64,000 nt of DNA from Escherichia coli (GCF_044324785.1 NZ_CP172127.1), one strand, 5' to 3'. Shown: positions 21,815 to 37,078, counted from the first letter of the stretch. The notes: a model not told the origin generated them from the letters alone. Program-made: numbers and translations.

Positions 21815-21989
21815 GACGCCACCGATAACCGTTATTTATCAGACCAAAGAAACTGGCATCTACTTTAATGCAGATGATTGTGTCAGGGTAATTTATGAAC
21901 GGTTAAAACTGTGAAAAATCAGTTAGTGATAAGTAAAAACTATCGCTACGTGAACCGGGTCACACTTTTTACTGATGACGGGAAAGGTT

Positions 21990-30515: not shown

Positions 30516-30691
30516 TCAATGCTTCACAATATACATAGTCCGACTGTACGCCACATCTTCAGGGTTATTAATGGGATAACCTTTCAGCCACGGCTTGATT
30601 AATCGTCCATTGGTATATTGATAAATTGGTGCAATCGGTGCTTGCTCCATGAGGATTTTTTCTGCCGCATTGTAATCGGCATTACGCGCTT
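30516..30691 (-). pseudogene. mppA: mppA 3' fragment (C-terminal 57 codons) severed by IS1
   Basis: The minus-strand translation ...RNADYNAAEKILMEQAPIAPIYQYTNGRLIKPWLKGYPINNPEDVAYSRTMYIVKH* continues the MppA frame across the IS1 insertion. Confidence 0.8.
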
Positions 30692-30746
30692 GGTGATGCT
30701 GCCAACTTACTGATTTAGTGTATGATGGTGTTTTTGAGGTGCTCCA

Positions 30747-31022
30747 GTGGCTTCTGTTTCTATCAGCTGTCCCTCCTGTTCAGCTACTGACGGGGTGGTG
30801 CGTAACGGCAAAAGCACCGCCGGACATCAGCGCTATCTCTGCTCTCACTGCCGTAAAACATGGCAACTGCAGTTCACTTACACCGCTTCTCAACCCGGTA
30901 CGCACCAGAAAATCATTGATATGGCCATGAATGGCGTTGGATGCCGGGCAACTGCCCGCATTATGGGCGTTGGCCTCAACACGATTTTACGTCACTTAAA
31001 AAACTCAGGCCGCAGTCGGTAA
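30747..31022 (+). CDS. insA: IS1 InsA, 91 aa
   Basis: [40 protein letters not shown]... matches canonical InsA. Confidence 0.95.
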
Positions 31023-31444
31023 CCTCGCGCATACAGCCGGGCAGTGACGTCATCGTCTGCGCGGAAATGGACGAACAGTGGGGCTATGTCGGGGCTAAAT
31101 CGCGCCAGCGCTGGCTGTTTTACGCGTATGACAGTCTCCGGAAGACGGTTGTTGCGCACGTATTCGGTGAACGCACTATGGCGACGCTGGGGCGTCTTAT
31201 GAGCCTGCTGTCACCCTTTGACGTGGTGATATGGATGACGGATGGCTGGCCGCTGTATGAATCCCGCCTGAAGGGAAAGCTGCACGTAATCAGCAAGCGA
31301 TATACGCAGCGAATTGAGCGGCATAACCTGAATCTGAGGCAGCACCTGGCACGGCTGGGACGGAAGTCGCTGTCGTTTTCAAAATCGGTGGAGCTGCATG
31401 ACAAAGTCATCGGGCATTATCTGAACATAAAACACTATCAATAA
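30941..31444 (+). CDS. insB: IS1 InsB frame; transposase InsAB' is made by a -1 frameshift
   Basis: The 167-aa frame overlaps insA, the standard IS1 organisation. Confidence 0.9.
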
Positions 31445-31459
31445 GTTGGAGTCATTACC

Positions 31460-32927
31460 TACGCGCTTTAACGGTATTTTCCGTTGATGCCTGGGCCAGT
31501 ACTTTGTCGTATGCCGGATTGTTAAAGCGTGAAATATTCCCTGAATGCGTTGACGTTAACAACGTAAGGAAAGTGGAGGGTTCATTATAATCCCCTACCC
31601 ATGAGGCGCGGATAACATCAAAATTGCCGGTGTTACGGCTATCGATATAGGTTTTCCATTCCTGATTCTGCAATTTAACATCTACGCCAAGGTTCTTTTT
31701 CCACATCGATGCTACAGCAATCGCAATTTTTTGATGGTTTTCTGAAGTGTTATACAAAAGCGTCAGCTTCAGCGGTTTTTGCGGACCATAACCAGCTGCG
31801 CTCAACAAAGTTTTTGCCTGCGCATTCAGTTCTTCCTGACTCATTTGTTCAAACGGCGAAGGCTCCGGCGTAAAACCGGCAGTAACATCTGGTGTAAAAT
31901 GCCACGCTGGCTTTTCCCCCGTCCCCAACACTTTTTCGGTCATCAGGCGGCGATCTATCGTCATACTTAATGCCAGGCGAACACGCTGATCGGCCGTCGG
32001 CCCTTTTTGCGTGTTAAACGCATAATAATAGGTCCCGAGCTGCGGCGGCGTATAAACCTGCCCCGGAATATCCTTCAACAGCTTCTGATACATATTTTTC
32101 GGGAAGGATTCGGTGATATCAATATCCCCCGCGAGGTAACGCTTAGTGGCTGCGGATTCCTGATTAATTGGCAAGAAGGTCACTTTTTGCAGTACCGTTT
32201 TGGCGTTATCCCAATAATGGGTATTCGGTACCACGACCAGTTTTTCATTGACTACGCGCTCTTCAAGAACATAAGCGCCATTACCGATCAGTTTTCCGGG
32301 TTTCGTCCACTCTTTAATGCTTTCTACGTTGGCTTTTTGCACCGGGAAGAAGGCAAAGTTAGCGGTTAAATTCACAAACCACGGCAACGGTTTATCAAGC
32401 TGGATTTTCAAAGTATGGGCATCAACTGCGGTGACGCCAAGCTGGTCAGGCGTGGCTTTACCATCAATAATCGCCTGTGCGTTGTTGATTCCCGCCAGCG
32501 CGGCAAACCATGCAAATGGCGACAATGTTTTTGGGTCCACCAGACGTTGCCAGCTGTAGACAAAATCTTGCGCCGTTACCGGTGTGCCATCCGCCCATTT
32601 TGCGTTATCGCGCAAGGTAAATGTCCAGATACGGTTGTCATTACTTTTCCACTGAGTCGCAACGCCGGGGACAATCTCCCCTTTCTCGTTCTGATTCACC
32701 AGTCCTTCAAACAGATCGCGAATGACCTGAATCTCTGGCAGGCCCACGGCTTTAGCGGGATCCAGCGACGCAGGTTCATCTTTAATGTGGCGCACCAACT
32801 CCTGCTTCTCTGCCAGTACTGTGCCGCTCGGAACTTCTGCAGCATACGAAAGAGAAATGCTGCTGACCAACAGCGCACAACACGTGACTGAAACAGAGTG
32901 CTTCATAAGTTTCCCTCTAACCGACAT
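31460..32927 (-). pseudogene. mppA: mppA 5' portion, truncated by IS1; the fusion frame ends ...TVKARR*
   Basis: Sec signal MKHSVSVTCCALLVSSISLSYA followed by an SBP family-5 (OppA-like) body. The last codons and the stop come from the IS1 end and the TSD. Confidence 0.85.
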
Positions 32928-33242
32928 TAAAATTGATGCGTAATTATTTGTTTCGCCTTAAAGAAATGCAAACAACTTCCATCAAAAAAGTGACAAAGGA
33001 AGCATCAAATGTTTTAAGTATCAATATATCAAATCAGATTTAGCGTAAATAATAGTCTCCAAAATGCGGTAAAGCACATAGAACTCCGAACACTACGTTC
33101 GGGCTTCGCACGTTCAAACCCGTTTTCGGTATCATAATCAGCATCTGTCGCCATTGTGCGAAGAATAAAAAATGACCAAAACGTTGAAAGGAACTGAGAA
33201 TACGTTAAGAGAAGAATTAAATTAATGTATCAGCAAGTAGTG

Positions 33243-34142
33243 CTAAACAGCACCTTTATACTTCAGCCTATCTATAAATAATGAGAATGCCGAGCCAGCA
33301 TGTCGACGGTGTGGATAGTACAGGTGATAACCGGGTAAATCTGGTGTGAATTTATCCAAAACACGTATCAGTTTTTTTTCTTTAATAGCCCGCTCAACCT
33401 GATCATAAGGTAGATACGCCAACCCATGCCCATCAATTGCAGCATCAATGATCAGGTCTATCGTATTCAGTAAAAGCTGACCTTCCATGCGAACACGAAC
33501 TTCACGTCCACCGCGTATTAATCTCCAGCGATTTGCTGTACCCGATGTGGGAAGATACAAATTAATTGCCTGATGATCTATTAATTGTGACACTGACGTT
33601 GGAGCACTTCGACGAGAAAAATAATCCGGTGAGCCAACAATAGCCATTGGTATATCTGGCCCGATTCGAATGGCGATCATATCTTTATCCATCTCCCCAC
33701 CCAGACGGACGCCTGCATCAAAACGTTCAGAAACGACATCGGTCAAACCATAATCAATGGTAAGCTGGATATCAATTTCAGGATGCGATTTCAGGAATGT
33801 GCGCATAGCTGGTAACAATATCGTTTTTGCTGCATGTTCTACAGTAGTAATACGTATTGTCCCGGATGGGCGGTTCTGCAGATCGCTCAGGGATGTCAGG
33901 GCAGAATCTATGTCATGCAACATAGGGCCAAGAACAGACAAAAGATGCTCGCCCGCTTCAGTGGGTACAACGCTGCGCGTGGTTCGCGTCAGAAGCCGCA
34001 ATCCTAATCGTTCTTCTATACGGCGCACTATCTGGCTTAAAGCTGACTGCGCCATGCTCAGGCGGGCTGCTGCGCGAGTGAAGCTACGCTCCTCTGCAAC
34101 GACGACAAACGCCATCAGATCAGCGATTTCTTCACGCTTCAT
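33243..34142 (-). CDS. pgrR: LysR-family regulator PgrR (YcjZ), 299 aa
   Basis: 299-aa LTTR. Position between mppA and ycjY matches K-12 ycjZ. Confidence 0.8.
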   Translation of the reverse strand: MKREEIADLMAFVVVAEERSFTRAAARLSMAQSALSQIVRRIEERLGLRLLTRTTRSVVPTEAGEHLLSVLGPMLHDIDSALTSLSDLQNRPSGTIRITTVEHAAKTILLPAMRTFLKSHPEIDIQLTIDYGLTDVVSERFDAGVRLGGEMDKDMIAIRIGPDIPMAIVGSPDYFSRRSAPTSVSQLIDHQAINLYLPTSGTANRWRLIRGGREVRVRMEGQLLLNTIDLIIDAAIDGHGLAYLPYDQVERAIKEKKLIRVLDKFTPDLPGYHLYYPHRRHAGSAFSLFIDRLKYKGAV

Positions 34143-34279
34143 TCAGTATCTCCATACAATCTATTAATCATTTAAATGATAGGTCTAATCATGATTTTGG
34201 GTCTAATCAACTTAATGATCAATATCTATAGTGATATCACCAACCGTCAAAACGAACCGACAACTCCATGAGGAACGGA

Positions 34280-35200
34280 ATGATGAATAATAAAGTCAGC
34301 TTCACTAACAGCAATAATCCAACCATCTCTTTGTCTGCAGTGATCTATTTCCCTCCAAAATTTGATGAAACCCGTCAGTATCCGGCAATTGTGGTATCTC
34401 ACCCAGGTGGGGGCGTTAAAGAGCAAACGGCCGGAACCTATGCCGAAAAACTGGCGGAAAAGGGATTTGTCACTATTGCTTATGACGCATCTTATCAAGG
34501 TGAAAGCGGCGGCGAGCCGCGTCAGTTAGAAAACCCATACATTCGTACTGAAGACGTCAGTGCCGTGATTGATTACCTGACAACGCTTTCTTATGTCGAC
34601 AATACCCGAATTGGTGCGATGGGAATTTGTGCCGGTGCAGGATATACAGCCAATGCTGCAATTCAGGATCGCCGCATCAAGGCCATCGGTACTGTTAGTG
34701 CGGTCAATATTGGTTCGATGTTCCGTAATGGTTGGGAAAACAATGTGAAATCTATTGATGCCCTACCATACGTTGACGCGGGTTCAAACGCCCGAACCAG
34801 CGATATTAGCAGCGGAGAATACGCCACTATGCCACTGGCACCAATGAAGGAGTCCGATGCGCCGAACGAAGAACTGCGTCAGGCCTGGGAGTATTACCAC
34901 ACCCCTCGCGCGCAGTATCCAACAGCACCGGGTTACGCTACTTTGCGCAGCCTTAACCAGATTATTACCTATGATGCTTACCATATGGCGGAAGTGTACC
35001 TGACTCAGCCGATACAGATTGTGGCGGGCAGCCAGGCAGGGAGCAAATGGATGAGTGACGACCTGTACGATCGAGCATCAAGCCAGGATAAACGCTATCA
35101 CATTGTTGAAGGCGCAAACCATATGGATCTTTATGACGGCAAAGCCTATGTGGCTGAAGCAATTTCAGTATTAGCTCCGTTCTTTGAGGAAACTCTGTAA
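34280..35200 (+). CDS. ycjY: YcjY, alpha/beta-hydrolase (dienelactone hydrolase / S9-like), about 306 aa
   Basis: Nucleophile elbow GICAGAGY. Divergent from pgrR. Confidence 0.8.
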   Translation: MMNNKVSFTNSNNPTISLSAVIYFPPKFDETRQYPAIVVSHPGGGVKEQTAGTYAEKLAEKGFVTIAYDASYQGESGGEPRQLENPYIRTEDVSAVIDYLTTLSYVDNTRIGAMGICAGAGYTANAAIQDRRIKAIGTVSAVNIGSMFRNGWENNVKSIDALPYVDAGSNARTSDISSGEYATMPLAPMKESDAPNEELRQAWEYYHTPRAQYPTAPGYATLRSLNQIITYDAYHMAEVYLTQPIQIVAGSQAGSKWMSDDLYDRASSQDKRYHIVEGANHMDLYDGKAYVAEAISVLAPFFEETL

Positions 35201-36132
35201 TGAAACATATTCAAATCCGCAATAGTGATATGGCCTGGCATATTGCTGCCAATATTCAGTTTCCACCAAATTTTGATGAGTCAAAACAGTATCCGGCGAT
35301 TATCAGCGTCCATCCTTTTGGCAGTTGTAAGGAGCAGACGTCTGGCAATATCTATGGCAAGGCATTGGCTGAAAAAGGCTATGTCGTTCTCGCTTATGAC
35401 GCCAGTTTCCAGGGAGAATCTGGTGGGGAGCCTCGTTGGATAGAAGATCCGACACAGCGCGTTGAGGATATTAGCCGTGTTATCGATTATGCAGTAACTC
35501 TGCCATATGTTGATGCTGAACGCATTGGCGTGCTGGGTGTGTGTGGGGGGGGTGGCTATGCCATTAATGCCGCGCTGACAGAAAAACGAATTAAAGCTGT
35601 AGTGAGTATTACGGGTGTTAATATCGGGCGTCTTTTTCGAGAAGGTTTCAGCAATTACGATCCGATTGGCGCATTGAATGCAATGGCGTCGCAACGAACC
35701 AAAGAGGCTCGTGGTGGAGAATTACAGATCAACGAATTACTTCCCGCCAGCCTGGATGCAGCAAAAGCCCATGGACTGACCGAACGCGATGTTTATGAAG
35801 CAACTGACTACTATAAAACACCACGCGGGCAACAACCGGGAGGTGCGACAAAAATGTTGTTCTCACATGCACAGAAAACGCTGGCCTGGGATGCCTTCGC
35901 ATTTACTGAAGTGTTACTGACTCAGCCGGTGATGGTAGTAGTTGGTGAAAAAGTCGGTGCCTTCGGTGCTTATCGTGATGGACTGGAAGTCTATGGCCGG
36001 GCGATGGTTTCGCAGGATCGTCAGTTAGTTTCGTTACCCGATTTCTCACATTATGAACTGTATGACAAACCGGAAGCAGTTCAGGAGGCGCTGGAAAAAG
36101 TTATTCCTTTTTTCAACACCCATCTGGGATAA
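35200..36132 (+). CDS. ymjD: Intact paralogue of YcjY (alpha/beta-hydrolase), 310 aa; a pseudogene fragment in K-12
   Basis: The 310-aa paralogue shares QYPAI..SVHP..GG.KEQT..IAYDAS.QGESGGEPR with YcjY. Its start overlaps the ycjY stop (ATGA). Confidence 0.6.
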   Translation: MKHIQIRNSDMAWHIAANIQFPPNFDESKQYPAIISVHPFGSCKEQTSGNIYGKALAEKGYVVLAYDASFQGESGGEPRWIEDPTQRVEDISRVIDYAVTLPYVDAERIGVLGVCGGGGYAINAALTEKRIKAVVSITGVNIGRLFREGFSNYDPIGALNAMASQRTKEARGGELQINELLPASLDAAKAHGLTERDVYEATDYYKTPRGQQPGGATKMLFSHAQKTLAWDAFAFTEVLLTQPVMVVVGEKVGAFGAYRDGLEVYGRAMVSQDRQLVSLPDFSHYELYDKPEAVQEALEKVIPFFNTHLG

Positions 36133-36149
36133 GTTTCATGAGAAATATT

Positions 36150-36788
36150 ATGAAAAAAGTACTCATTCTTGGTGCTGGCGGTCAGATAGCCCGCCATGTG
36201 ATTAATCAACTGGCAGATAAACAAACCATTAAACAAACTTTATTTGCTCGTCAGCCAGCAAAAATACACAAACCCTATCCAACTAATAGCCAGATTATTA
36301 TGGGGGATGTACTGAATCATGCAGCACTGAAGCAGGCCATGCAGGGACAGGATGTTGTGTATGCCAACCTTACGGGGGAAGATTTAGATATTCAGGCAAA
36401 TTCAGTGATCGCTGCGATGAAAGCCTGTGATGTTAAACGTCTGATCTTTGTTCTTTCCCTCGGTATTTATGATGAAGTTCCAGGAAAATTTGGCGAATGG
36501 AATAATGCAGTTATTGGTGAACCCCTAAAACCATTCCGCAGGGCTGCGGATGCAATTGAGGCTTCTGGACTGGAATATACAATTCTTCGCCCTGCCTGGC
36601 TGACTGATGAAGATATTATTGATTATGAGCTTACCTCACGCAATGAACCATTCAAAGGTACGATCGTATCACGTAAGAGTGTCGCCGCATTAATTACAGA
36701 TATCATCGATAAACCTGAGAAACACATTGGTGAGAATATAGGCATCAATCAACCCGGGACTGATGGCGATAAACCCTTCTTCATGTAA
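36150..36788 (+). CDS. ymjC: NAD(P)-binding NmrA/SDR-like protein, about 212 aa; a pseudogene fragment in K-12
   Basis: Rossmann motif ILGAGGQIARHV at the N-terminus. Confidence 0.6.
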   Translation: MKKVLILGAGGQIARHVINQLADKQTIKQTLFARQPAKIHKPYPTNSQIIMGDVLNHAALKQAMQGQDVVYANLTGEDLDIQANSVIAAMKACDVKRLIFVLSLGIYDEVPGKFGEWNNAVIGEPLKPFRRAADAIEASGLEYTILRPAWLTDEDIIDYELTSRNEPFKGTIVSRKSVAALITDIIDKPEKHIGENIGINQPGTDGDKPFFM

Positions 36789-36806
36789 ATCAATTATATA
36801 GCTACC

Positions 36807-36838
36807 ATCGTACTGTACTATGTGCAGTACGATTTATT
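36807..36838 (+). terminator. Putative intrinsic terminator after the ycjY-ymjD-ymjC unit
   Basis: ATCGTACTG-tactatgtg-CAGTACGAT followed by TTATT. Confidence 0.5.
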
Positions 36839-37078
36839 AAACTTATTAAGGTGAACTGATCAATCAGATGCGATTAACATGTGTAGAACCAGTAAGAATA
36901 AAATACGCCATGTATATAACATTACGACAATTCTAATATCTGCACATCAATGAAAATGCAAACAACTTCTGGCAAAAAAGTGATACAAGATCGATGACAT
37001 AGCGTTGAAGAAAAGGATTTGATAATCCGCAAAATTTGCACAACACTGCCTGTAATACTTCCTGAACCAGAGACGATC

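Follow-up and report, generated by a model that had tools for sequence, protein, structure and literature searches.

A 37-bp direct repeat between mppA and mpaA of Escherichia coli: probable scar of cassette insertion into a predicted divergent promoter region

Two copies of a 37-bp motif bound an insert between mppA and mpaA

We analysed a 64,000-nt stretch of Escherichia coli DNA (the window) in which mppA and mpaA, encoding the murein tripeptide binding protein and the murein tripeptide amidase, point away from each other and are separated by the LysR-type regulator gene pgrR (ycjZ), a three-enzyme operon and, at either end of this insert, one copy of a 37-bp motif (Table 1). Because an IS1 element interrupts its 3′ part, mppA has 484 codons instead of 537. 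Its start, placed at 32927 by an initial annotation made from the sequence alone, was corrected to 32906, where a conserved ATG with the ribosome-binding site GAGGGAAA agrees with the RefSeq annotation of E. coli N3; the start given for mpaA was correct.

Table 1 Features of the mppA/mpaA locus in the window
Feature	Position	Strand	Remarks
mppA	31455–32906	−	Murein tripeptide binding protein
Predicted mppA −10 hexamer	32943–32948	−	AATAAT; outside the repeat, within the invariant block GTAATTATTTGTTTC
Predicted mppA −35 hexamer	32966–32971	−	TTGCAT; inside the left copy
Left copy	32964–33000	+	37-bp direct repeat; covers about −28 to −64 relative to the predicted start of mppA transcription; holds the predicted mppA −35 hexamer
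Insert between the copies	33001–36953		3,953 bp
AT-rich junction segments of the insert	33001–33243 and 36860–36953		
Cassette core	33244–36859		
pgrR (ycjZ)	33243–34142	−	LysR-type regulator (RefSeq annotation)
Palindrome TAATCATTTAAATGATA	34165–34181		Between the divergent pgrR and ycjY genes; no relation to the 37-bp motif
Cassette operon	34268–36788	+	Three enzyme genes
ycjY	34268–35200	+	Alpha/beta hydrolase (annotation)
ymjD in K-12	35200–36132	+	Second alpha/beta hydrolase
ymjC in K-12	36138–36788	+	NmrA-like SDR
Terminator-like hairpin	36807–36839	+	12-bp stem, 3-nt loop, then UUUAUU
Right copy	36954–36990	+	37-bp direct repeat; about 64–100 bp ahead of the predicted start of mpaA transcription
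Predicted mpaA promoter	37019–37047	+	TTGATA (37019–37024), 17 bp, AACACT (37042–37047); outside the repeat
mpaA	37079–37807	+	Murein tripeptide amidase

A repeat search found both copies where the annotation had placed them, on the plus strand and at a spacing of 3990 nt. Without gaps the two 37-nt copies are identical at 31/37 positions (84%), and the previously noted identity of about 34/37 holds only with a gap in the tail. The 30-nt pattern AAATGCAAACAACTTC-N3-CAAAAAAGTGA has exactly two exact matches in the whole 64-kb window, while 100 dinucleotide-preserving shuffles gave no match at up to three mismatches; over this core all 27 specified bases are equal and all three central bases differ (CAT vs TGG). 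A search for further genomic copies, proposed initially as a check, found few (a median of 2 places per E. coli genome, at most 4): the motif is not a dispersed repeat element of the REP or MITE type. An Rfam search (E ≤ 1) gave no family of structured RNA at either copy.

A single motif copy lies in the ancestral spacer

Among 80 Enterobacteriaceae species loci, 73 have mppA and mpaA adjacent and divergent with one motif copy between them, central in a spacer of about 182 bp. These single-copy loci come from Citrobacter, Enterobacter, Leclercia, Kluyvera and other genera, and also from E. ruysiae, E. whittamii and two further Escherichia lineages. The adjacent, divergent pair with a shared spacer is the ancestral arrangement, and the presence of the motif in orthologous promoters of more than 70 species upholds its initial assignment to regulatory DNA. 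The left flank of the left copy is colinear with the mppA-proximal half of this spacer and the right flank of the right copy with the mpaA-proximal half, and the same unoccupied arrangement, with one copy and colinear outer flanks, was found both in relatives and in E. coli itself (168–173 of 5,426 complete genomes). The flanks of the two copies are indeed dissimilar, as initially remarked, because the outer ones come from opposite halves of a single ancestral spacer and the inner ones belong to the ends of the insert. In the window, the right copy is one base off the single copy of an Escherichia sp. outgroup (L003); in E. coli N3 it is identical to it.

Conservation within the motif is uneven: mean column identity reaches 95% over the left nine bases and 82% over AAAGTGAT, and falls to 57% in the centre and 53% in the tail. 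The well-conserved right part (73 species) is sited between two promoter-like sites; past the left nine bases the motif reads CTT-N6-GAAAGTTGAT in most genera and CTTCC-N-CAAAAAAGTGAT in E. coli. The motif is absent upstream of mpaA at two loci without an mppA neighbour (L076 and L077) and in S. arizonae (L024), all three of which retain the proximal promoter blocks.

The insert is a foreign cassette

No integrase or transposase is annotated in the insert, only pgrR, two hydrolases and an SDR, the enzymes being classified by the Pfam families of their homologues. Copies from Klebsiella, Salmonella and other hosts are homologous to precisely the cassette core, at about 79% identity; they reside in conjugative elements and on plasmids of Klebsiella and Salmonella, and beside arsenic-resistance or defence genes, and at about 69% the cassette is also found on Rhizobium and Agrobacterium plasmids. 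Klebsiella, Raoultella, Kluyvera and Salmonella also carry homologues of pgrR itself at 88–89% identity, again on plasmids and conjugative elements. Neither the motif nor mppA/mpaA was found near the cassette copies elsewhere, and pgrR cassettes lacked the motif at 8 loci. The cassette is foreign to this spacer and mobile in nature. The insert carries neither a mobility enzyme nor terminal inverted repeats: no inverted repeats link its two junction segments, which occur nowhere else in the window and show no homology to the cassettes on plasmids or in conjugative elements. Directly 3′ of the SDR gene, within the core, a terminator-like hairpin is predicted at −16.2 kcal/mol (z = −4.65).

The two copies arose by duplication with insertion, and the cassette can be lost again

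Duplication and insertion at this site gave rise to the copies of the motif, which explains why they repeat directly and why their inner flanks are unrelated. Their common orientation, taken initially as an argument for an orientation-independent operator, follows automatically from this origin and carries no such implication. A horizontally acquired 3.95-kb cassette integrated centrally into the mppA/mpaA spacer of E. coli, and integration duplicated 37 bp of it, leaving one copy at each end of the insert. Transposon target duplications are far shorter than 37 bp, and we know of no transposition mechanism that yields a target duplication of this length.

The 37-bp repeats in turn serve as recombination substrates for deletion of the cassette. 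Ten E. coli genomes carry an exact chimera of left-copy CCAT and right-copy GATACAAGATCG (100% over 104 nt), and a chimeric single copy was aligned in strain GF4-3. As this recombinant copy is the expected product of a crossover within the repeats, the cassette has been lost there by recombination between them. Most empty-site E. coli have a CCGG centre and could represent never-occupied alleles instead of deletions. The K-12-type deletion, which removes the terminator-like hairpin, has one end no more than 1 nt away from the left boundary of the right copy, so that the repeat edge is possibly a recombination hot spot. A left-edge hot spot common to Salmonella was considered and rejected, since the cdt islet of S. 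diarizonae has its junction within the motif, which S. arizonae has lost.

The left part of the motif belongs to a predicted mppA promoter

A promoter scan found TTTGCA-18-AATAAT at 32972–32943 on the minus strand, equivalently TTGCAT-17-AATAAT, with the −10 hexamer ending 36 nt ahead of the mppA ATG. Over the region the scan was at chance (10 sites found vs 9.3 expected) and the promoter call therefore rests on conservation. In 72 species the −35 hexamer is TTGCAT (55), TTGCAA (13) or TTGCTT (4), and all 72 have the 17-bp spacing and the −10 hexamer AATAAT, with spacer columns only 30–60% identical. Consistently with a sigma-70 site, two hexamers thus stand at the right distance, with hexamers and spacer length conserved and spacer sequence varying. 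From this pattern we infer that the first nine bases of the motif, AAATGCAAA, correspond in reverse complement to the −35 region of a sigma-70-type mppA promoter. The initial statement that the motif is not a core promoter would accordingly be wrong for its left third.

The predicted mpaA promoter lies outside the repeat: TTGATT or TTGATA, 17 bp and a weak AACACT are found 30–32 nt ahead of the mpaA ATG in 72 of 73 species, and these proximal blocks persist where the motif is absent (L076, L077, L024). The approximately 25 bp that follow the first nine bases of the motif are moderately conserved and extend upstream of the predicted mppA −35 region, covering about −40 to −60 relative to the start of mppA and about −70 to −80 relative to that of mpaA. 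Such a position would suit an upstream element of the mppA promoter or a site for an activator of mppA, possibly one shared by both genes. The functional part of the mppA promoter would then be the left copy; an orphaned −35 region facing the cassette would remain in the right copy, which may be a relic or may keep the upstream element beside mpaA. Its preservation, as good as that of the outgroup sequence, would fit some function. A literature search for transcription-start data or promoter names gave nothing useful.

Discussion

These data favour, with a probability of about 0.78, the reading that the two copies are one piece of a promoter region doubled by insertion of the cassette, an ordinary scar, whose left part is the −35 region of mppA. 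The initial annotation is thereby partly supported: its observation is real and its interpretation mostly wrong.

That interpretation, in which the motif before mppA and mpaA serves PgrR as its operator in a peptidoglycan-recycling regulon, we consider highly improbable. LysR-type sites follow a loose T-N11-A rule, which is fitted by the ACTT-N9-AAGT found in the Escherichia and Citrobacter motif copies, and pgrR sits between both copies; across species, however, the dyad is no better than chance, with no 4-bp dyad in the motif of 45% of the 73 species vs 54% of shuffles. The motif is conserved in these species without pgrR in the spacer, and the cassette elsewhere never bears it. The pgrR/ycjY spacer instead holds its own palindrome, TAATCATTTAAATGATA, invariant among cassettes otherwise only about 79% identical and the sole such site in the window, which is the probable PgrR operator; the published SELEX peak of PgrR is at ycjY/ycjZ. 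The SELEX targets comprise ycjY/ycjZ and ten other loci, with neither mppA nor the mpaA-proximal spacer among them; databases place ycjY-ymjDC-mpaA and ycjG in the PgrR regulon (PMC5934670). In K-12-type alleles the ycjY promoter can reach mpaA because the terminator is deleted, and no motif site is needed for this.

Another reading, which we hold as a tentative minority view, accepts the duplication origin and differs on present function: both copies would be working operators of one putative regulator of murein-peptide uptake and breakdown, conserved across Enterobacteriaceae, binding CTT-N6-GAAAGTTGAT and acting on both divergent promoters, with the duplication tolerated or selected and each gene keeping its own copy. 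It is favoured by the 82% conservation of the motif's right part, which stands between the two promoter-like sites, by the identity of the E. coli N3 right copy to the outgroup, by a predicted mpaA −10 hexamer as weak as in activator-dependent promoters, and by the absence of mppA and mpaA from the main text on promoters constitutive for RpoD only (PMC3946193). It is weakened by the lack of an inverted repeat beyond chance and by the loss of the motif upstream of mpaA in L076, L077 and S. arizonae; E. coli genomes hold no further close copies, and there is no candidate protein. The related claim that the 37 bp hold a real shared control element for murein peptides, and that the insertion survived because the element was duplicated and both genes kept control, is to us doubtful. 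Among known binding sites, a ChIP-seq table assigns the CRP site CGTGAACCGGGTCACA to 'ycjZ/mppA' (PMC4287617). We rejected it at mppA, since it maps to window positions 21949–21964, 11 kb away. There it is flanked on one side by a minus-strand ORF of 302 aa and on the other by plus-strand ORFs of 441/481 aa, which by their sizes and layout we take to be abgR and abgAB. TyrR, CRP, FNR, IHF and PurR boxes and sigma-54 sites were also rejected: by-eye matches were partial, specific to E. coli or mis-spaced, and other genera lacked them.

Alternatively, the 37 bp might be the common core of attL and attR, left when a site-specific recombinase integrated a circular element already bearing the sequence. 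The enclosure of foreign DNA by direct repeats, the existence of empty sites with a single copy (chimeras included), a later K-12-type deletion ending exactly at the repeat edge and a CATCAA(A)TG adjoining the inner side of both copies would all suit such an origin, which is nevertheless improbable: the insert has no integrase gene or terminal inverted repeats, cassette copies elsewhere lack the motif at their ends, and the common junction sequence is at most 8–10 nt. Moreover, 37 bp are long enough for RecA-dependent crossover, so that the chimeras need no dedicated enzyme, and the Salmonella cdt islet entered the same spacer at another junction, inside the motif.

On the preferred reading of an insertion scar, pgrR-ycjY-ymjD-ymjC is an acquired module within the mppA/mpaA promoter region and not part of the original murein-recycling locus, which weakens the locus-based case for PgrR as a dedicated peptidoglycan-recycling regulator. 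Loss of the cassette terminator hairpin in K-12-type alleles may account for the apparent co-transcription of mpaA with ycjY in K-12. The promoter predictions for mppA and mpaA, conserved across Enterobacteriaceae, provide a testable map, and the presence/absence polymorphism of the cassette in E. coli, driven by the 37-bp repeats, a population marker. If the element does prove to be shared, the locus would offer a bidirectional promoter split naturally without loss of control. Overall, this is a tidy account of a curious repeat that does not overturn current understanding.

Relation to known systems

As in a LysR-type operator, here that of PgrR (YcjZ), the motif lies near a LysR gene and its E. 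coli copies allow a loose T-N11-A reading; it differs in not co-occurring with pgrR across genomes, in being unrelated to the palindrome of the pgrR spacer and in not being a listed SELEX target. The resemblance to back-to-back divergent sigma-70 promoters is closer, with two conserved hexamer pairs facing opposite ways at a fixed 17-bp spacing, −35 elements 54–57 bp apart in 64 of 72 species, and a motif covering one −35 element plus the DNA between the promoters; unlike in the usual divergent pairs, an insertion has here divided the predicted mppA/mpaA region, the centre of which is now present twice. Finally, the locus shares with islets flanked by Campbell-type repeats or target duplications an empty site with one copy and an occupied site with two direct copies, outer flanks colinear with the empty site, and a foreign insert known from plasmids and conjugative elements and lost via crossover between the repeats. 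It departs from them in the lack of any integrase, transposase, tRNA target or terminal inverted repeats in the insert, in the absence of the 37-bp sequence from donor copies, and in a duplication far longer than the target duplications of transposons.

Organization of the mppA-mpaA locus

Both copies of the motif that the initial annotation had seen upstream of mppA and mpaA proved real. They lie on the + strand 3990 bp apart, are identical at 31 of 37 positions without gaps, and flank a cassette comprising pgrR, ycjY, a second alpha/beta hydrolase and an NmrA-like SDR. A 30-nt core pattern had exactly two matches in the window, with none expected from shuffled sequences even when three mismatches were allowed. 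The gene map, which combines ORFs with the RefSeq annotation of an E. coli genome 99.6% identical, corrected the mppA start from 32927 to 32906 and placed ycjG, tpx and tyrR downstream of mpaA.

Coordinates of genes, repeat copies and the predicted mpaA promoter in the window
Feature	Position	Strand	Basis
mppA	ATG at 32906	-	ORF + RefSeq annotation
Left copy	32964-33000		
pgrR	33243-34142	-	ORF + RefSeq annotation
ycjY alpha/beta hydrolase	34268-35200	+	ORF + RefSeq annotation
Second alpha/beta hydrolase	35200-36132	+	ORF + RefSeq annotation
NmrA-like SDR	36138-36788	+	ORF + RefSeq annotation
Right copy	36954-36990		
Predicted mpaA hexamer pair	37019-37047	+	conserved in 72/73 species; outside repeat
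mpaA	37079-37807	+	ORF + RefSeq annotation

An IS1 element (30691-31459) breaks mppA (31455-32906), with an 8-nt overlap relative to an uninterrupted allele; the interrupted gene reaches a stop after 484 of 537 codons and its remainder resumes past IS1. In this genome mppA has probably lost its activity, and the left copy may therefore be without purpose.

The repeat marks an ancestral spacer split by an insertion

Loci around mpaA relatives were compared in 80 genomes, each from a different species; in 73 of them mppA and mpaA were adjacent and divergent, separated by a spacer of ~182 bp with a single motif copy in its middle. Species with this arrangement belong to Citrobacter, Enterobacter, Leclercia, Lelliottia, Kluyvera, Trabulsiella and other genera; Escherichia itself is represented by E. 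ruysiae, E. whittamii and two more lineages. Base-by-base alignment matched the window, between the mppA ATG and the last base of the left copy, to the left half of this ancestral spacer; the right half aligned with the right copy and all that follows it up to the mpaA ATG. Since the flanks match the two halves, the window holds the old mppA-mpaA spacer interrupted by 3,953 bp of inserted DNA (33001-36953), with the same 37 bp at either end of the insert. The unrelated inner flanks of the copies are thereby explained, as is their shared orientation, which had been mistaken for the mark of an orientation-independent operator. The 37-bp duplication could have arisen when a circle already bearing the 37 bp integrated, or by repair of a staggered break; no mobility genes were found in the insert and no terminal repeats in the junction segments.

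Across 5,426 complete E. coli genomes, places with the motif numbered a median of two and a maximum of four per genome, so that it is not a dispersed repeat. Twelve "plasmid" places of this chromosomal locus trace to records 4.8-4.9 Mb long or to large replicons of 250-385 kb labelled plasmids; some of these look like mislabelled chromosomes. Empty sites, with mppA beside mpaA and one copy, were present in 168-173 of these genomes. Ten of them, strain GF4-3 included, matched at 100% a chimera with the start of the left copy (centre CCAT) and the end of the right copy (GATACAAGATCG), the expected leftover of a crossover inside the repeats, which are thus able to delete the cassette. The outgroup-type centre CCGG was seen in most of the other empty sites; these may never have been occupied or may stem from crossovers further left.

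A different insert, of ~3 kb, occupies the same spacer in Salmonella enterica subsp. arizonae (L024 3848-7000) and diarizonae (L025 3562-7000), where the promoter blocks on the mppA side have given way to other sequence; diarizonae keeps the right half of the motif, whereas arizonae has none of it. Judging by the translations, sizes and layout of its three ORFs, the insert may be a cytolethal distending toxin cluster of the cdtABC type. Foreign DNA seems to have entered the mppA-mpaA spacer repeatedly.

The cassette is a mobile module with a palindrome of its own in the pgrR spacer

PgrR homologues 88-89% identical were found in Klebsiella, Raoultella, Kluyvera, Enterobacter, Citrobacter and Salmonella, within a LysR, hydrolase, hydrolase and SDR block to which an extra SDR (short-chain dehydrogenase) and an old-yellow-enzyme gene are often added (loci L085-L093). 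The settings of the block varied, from conjugative elements and the vicinity of arsenic-resistance or defence genes to Klebsiella plasmids, and copies at ~69% identity were present on Rhizobium and Agrobacterium plasmids; the plasmid matches are H112-H119. Nucleotide homology between these cassette loci and the window covered exactly 33244-36859, at ~79% identity, and motif, mppA and mpaA were absent from all of them; the motif thus belongs to the mppA/mpaA spacer and not to the cassette. Given its spread on plasmids and conjugative elements, peptidoglycan recycling is unlikely to be the native role of the pgrR/two-hydrolase/SDR module.

The initial annotation had proposed the motif as a shared operator of the peptidoglycan-recycling regulon, to be tried with PgrR; a PgrR operator is made unlikely by the divergent pgrR spacer. 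This spacer holds a different palindrome, TAATCATTTAAATGATA with repeated GTCTAATCA, invariant among cassettes otherwise ~79% identical, and no similar sites occur elsewhere in the window; the published SELEX target of PgrR at this locus is ycjY/ycjZ (PMC5934670). At the end of the intact cassette, a strong hairpin precedes a U-rich run. The K-12-type allele lacks two internal stretches, 35258-36149 and 36289-36952 in window coordinates; the second deletion removes this terminator hairpin and stops no more than one base from the point where the right copy begins. Loss of the hairpin may explain the reported ycjY-ymjDC-mpaA operon, with no need for a PgrR site at the motif. The deletions leave the second hydrolase and the SDR as the fragments ymjD and ymjC (L002 6664-6876, L006 6665-6877), with identical endpoints in E. 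coli and Escherichia sp. E1V33.

A ChIP-seq table lists the CRP site CGTGAACCGGGTCACA under "ycjZ/mppA" (PMC4287617). Its perfect match in the window is at 21949-21964, between a 302-aa LysR-sized ORF and 441/481-aa ORFs. From sizes and layout we take these ORFs to be abgR and abgAB, so the K-12 gene label in the table looks wrong.

The motif contains a predicted mppA promoter element

The 73-species alignment revealed clear footprints across the spacer, including two near-invariant blocks, GTAATTATTTGTTTC and GAAATGCAAA. On the mppA strand these read TTGCAT (55 species), TTGCAA (13) or TTGCTT (4), followed after exactly 17 bp of variable sequence by AATAAT in 72/72 species. A consensus promoter scan of the window returned the same site (32972..32943); by itself, the scan was not above chance for the region. 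Because the hexamers keep a fixed 17-bp spacing, the first nine bases of the motif constitute the predicted mppA -35 region, and the earlier view that the motif is not a core promoter is probably wrong. Column identity was 95% in these nine bases, 57% in the centre, 82% in the AAAGTGAT part and 53% in the tail; a dyad in the motif was not supported by conservation across species.

For mpaA, the pair TTGATT/TTGATA and AACACT, 17 bp apart, lay 30-32 nt before the ATG in 72/73 species. The conserved right part of the motif lies between the two predicted -35 elements, at roughly -45 to -57 relative to the presumed mppA start and -69 to -81 relative to that of mpaA, and is a putative upstream element or activator site. 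At two loci with mpaA away from mppA (L076, L077), as in S. arizonae, the proximal mpaA blocks were retained and the motif was lost, which ties it more to mppA than to mpaA.

A 16-nt block upstream of mpaA, TTTTGCACAACACTGC (37030-37050), is almost invariant across genera (72 species), beyond what a weak -10 hexamer would need; on the opposite strand the sequence is GGCA-N-TGCA, whose spacing is a single base less than that of a sigma-54 promoter. The orphaned -35 TTGCAT of the right copy is followed after 17 bp by TATTAG, a poor -10 without the final T; the pair (36933-36961, minus strand) is directed antisense into the cassette and is probably inactive.

Of the initial interpretation, regulatory DNA conserved in orthologous promoters therefore stands; the orientation argument does not, the PgrR operator is unlikely, and the exclusion of a core promoter is probably wrong.
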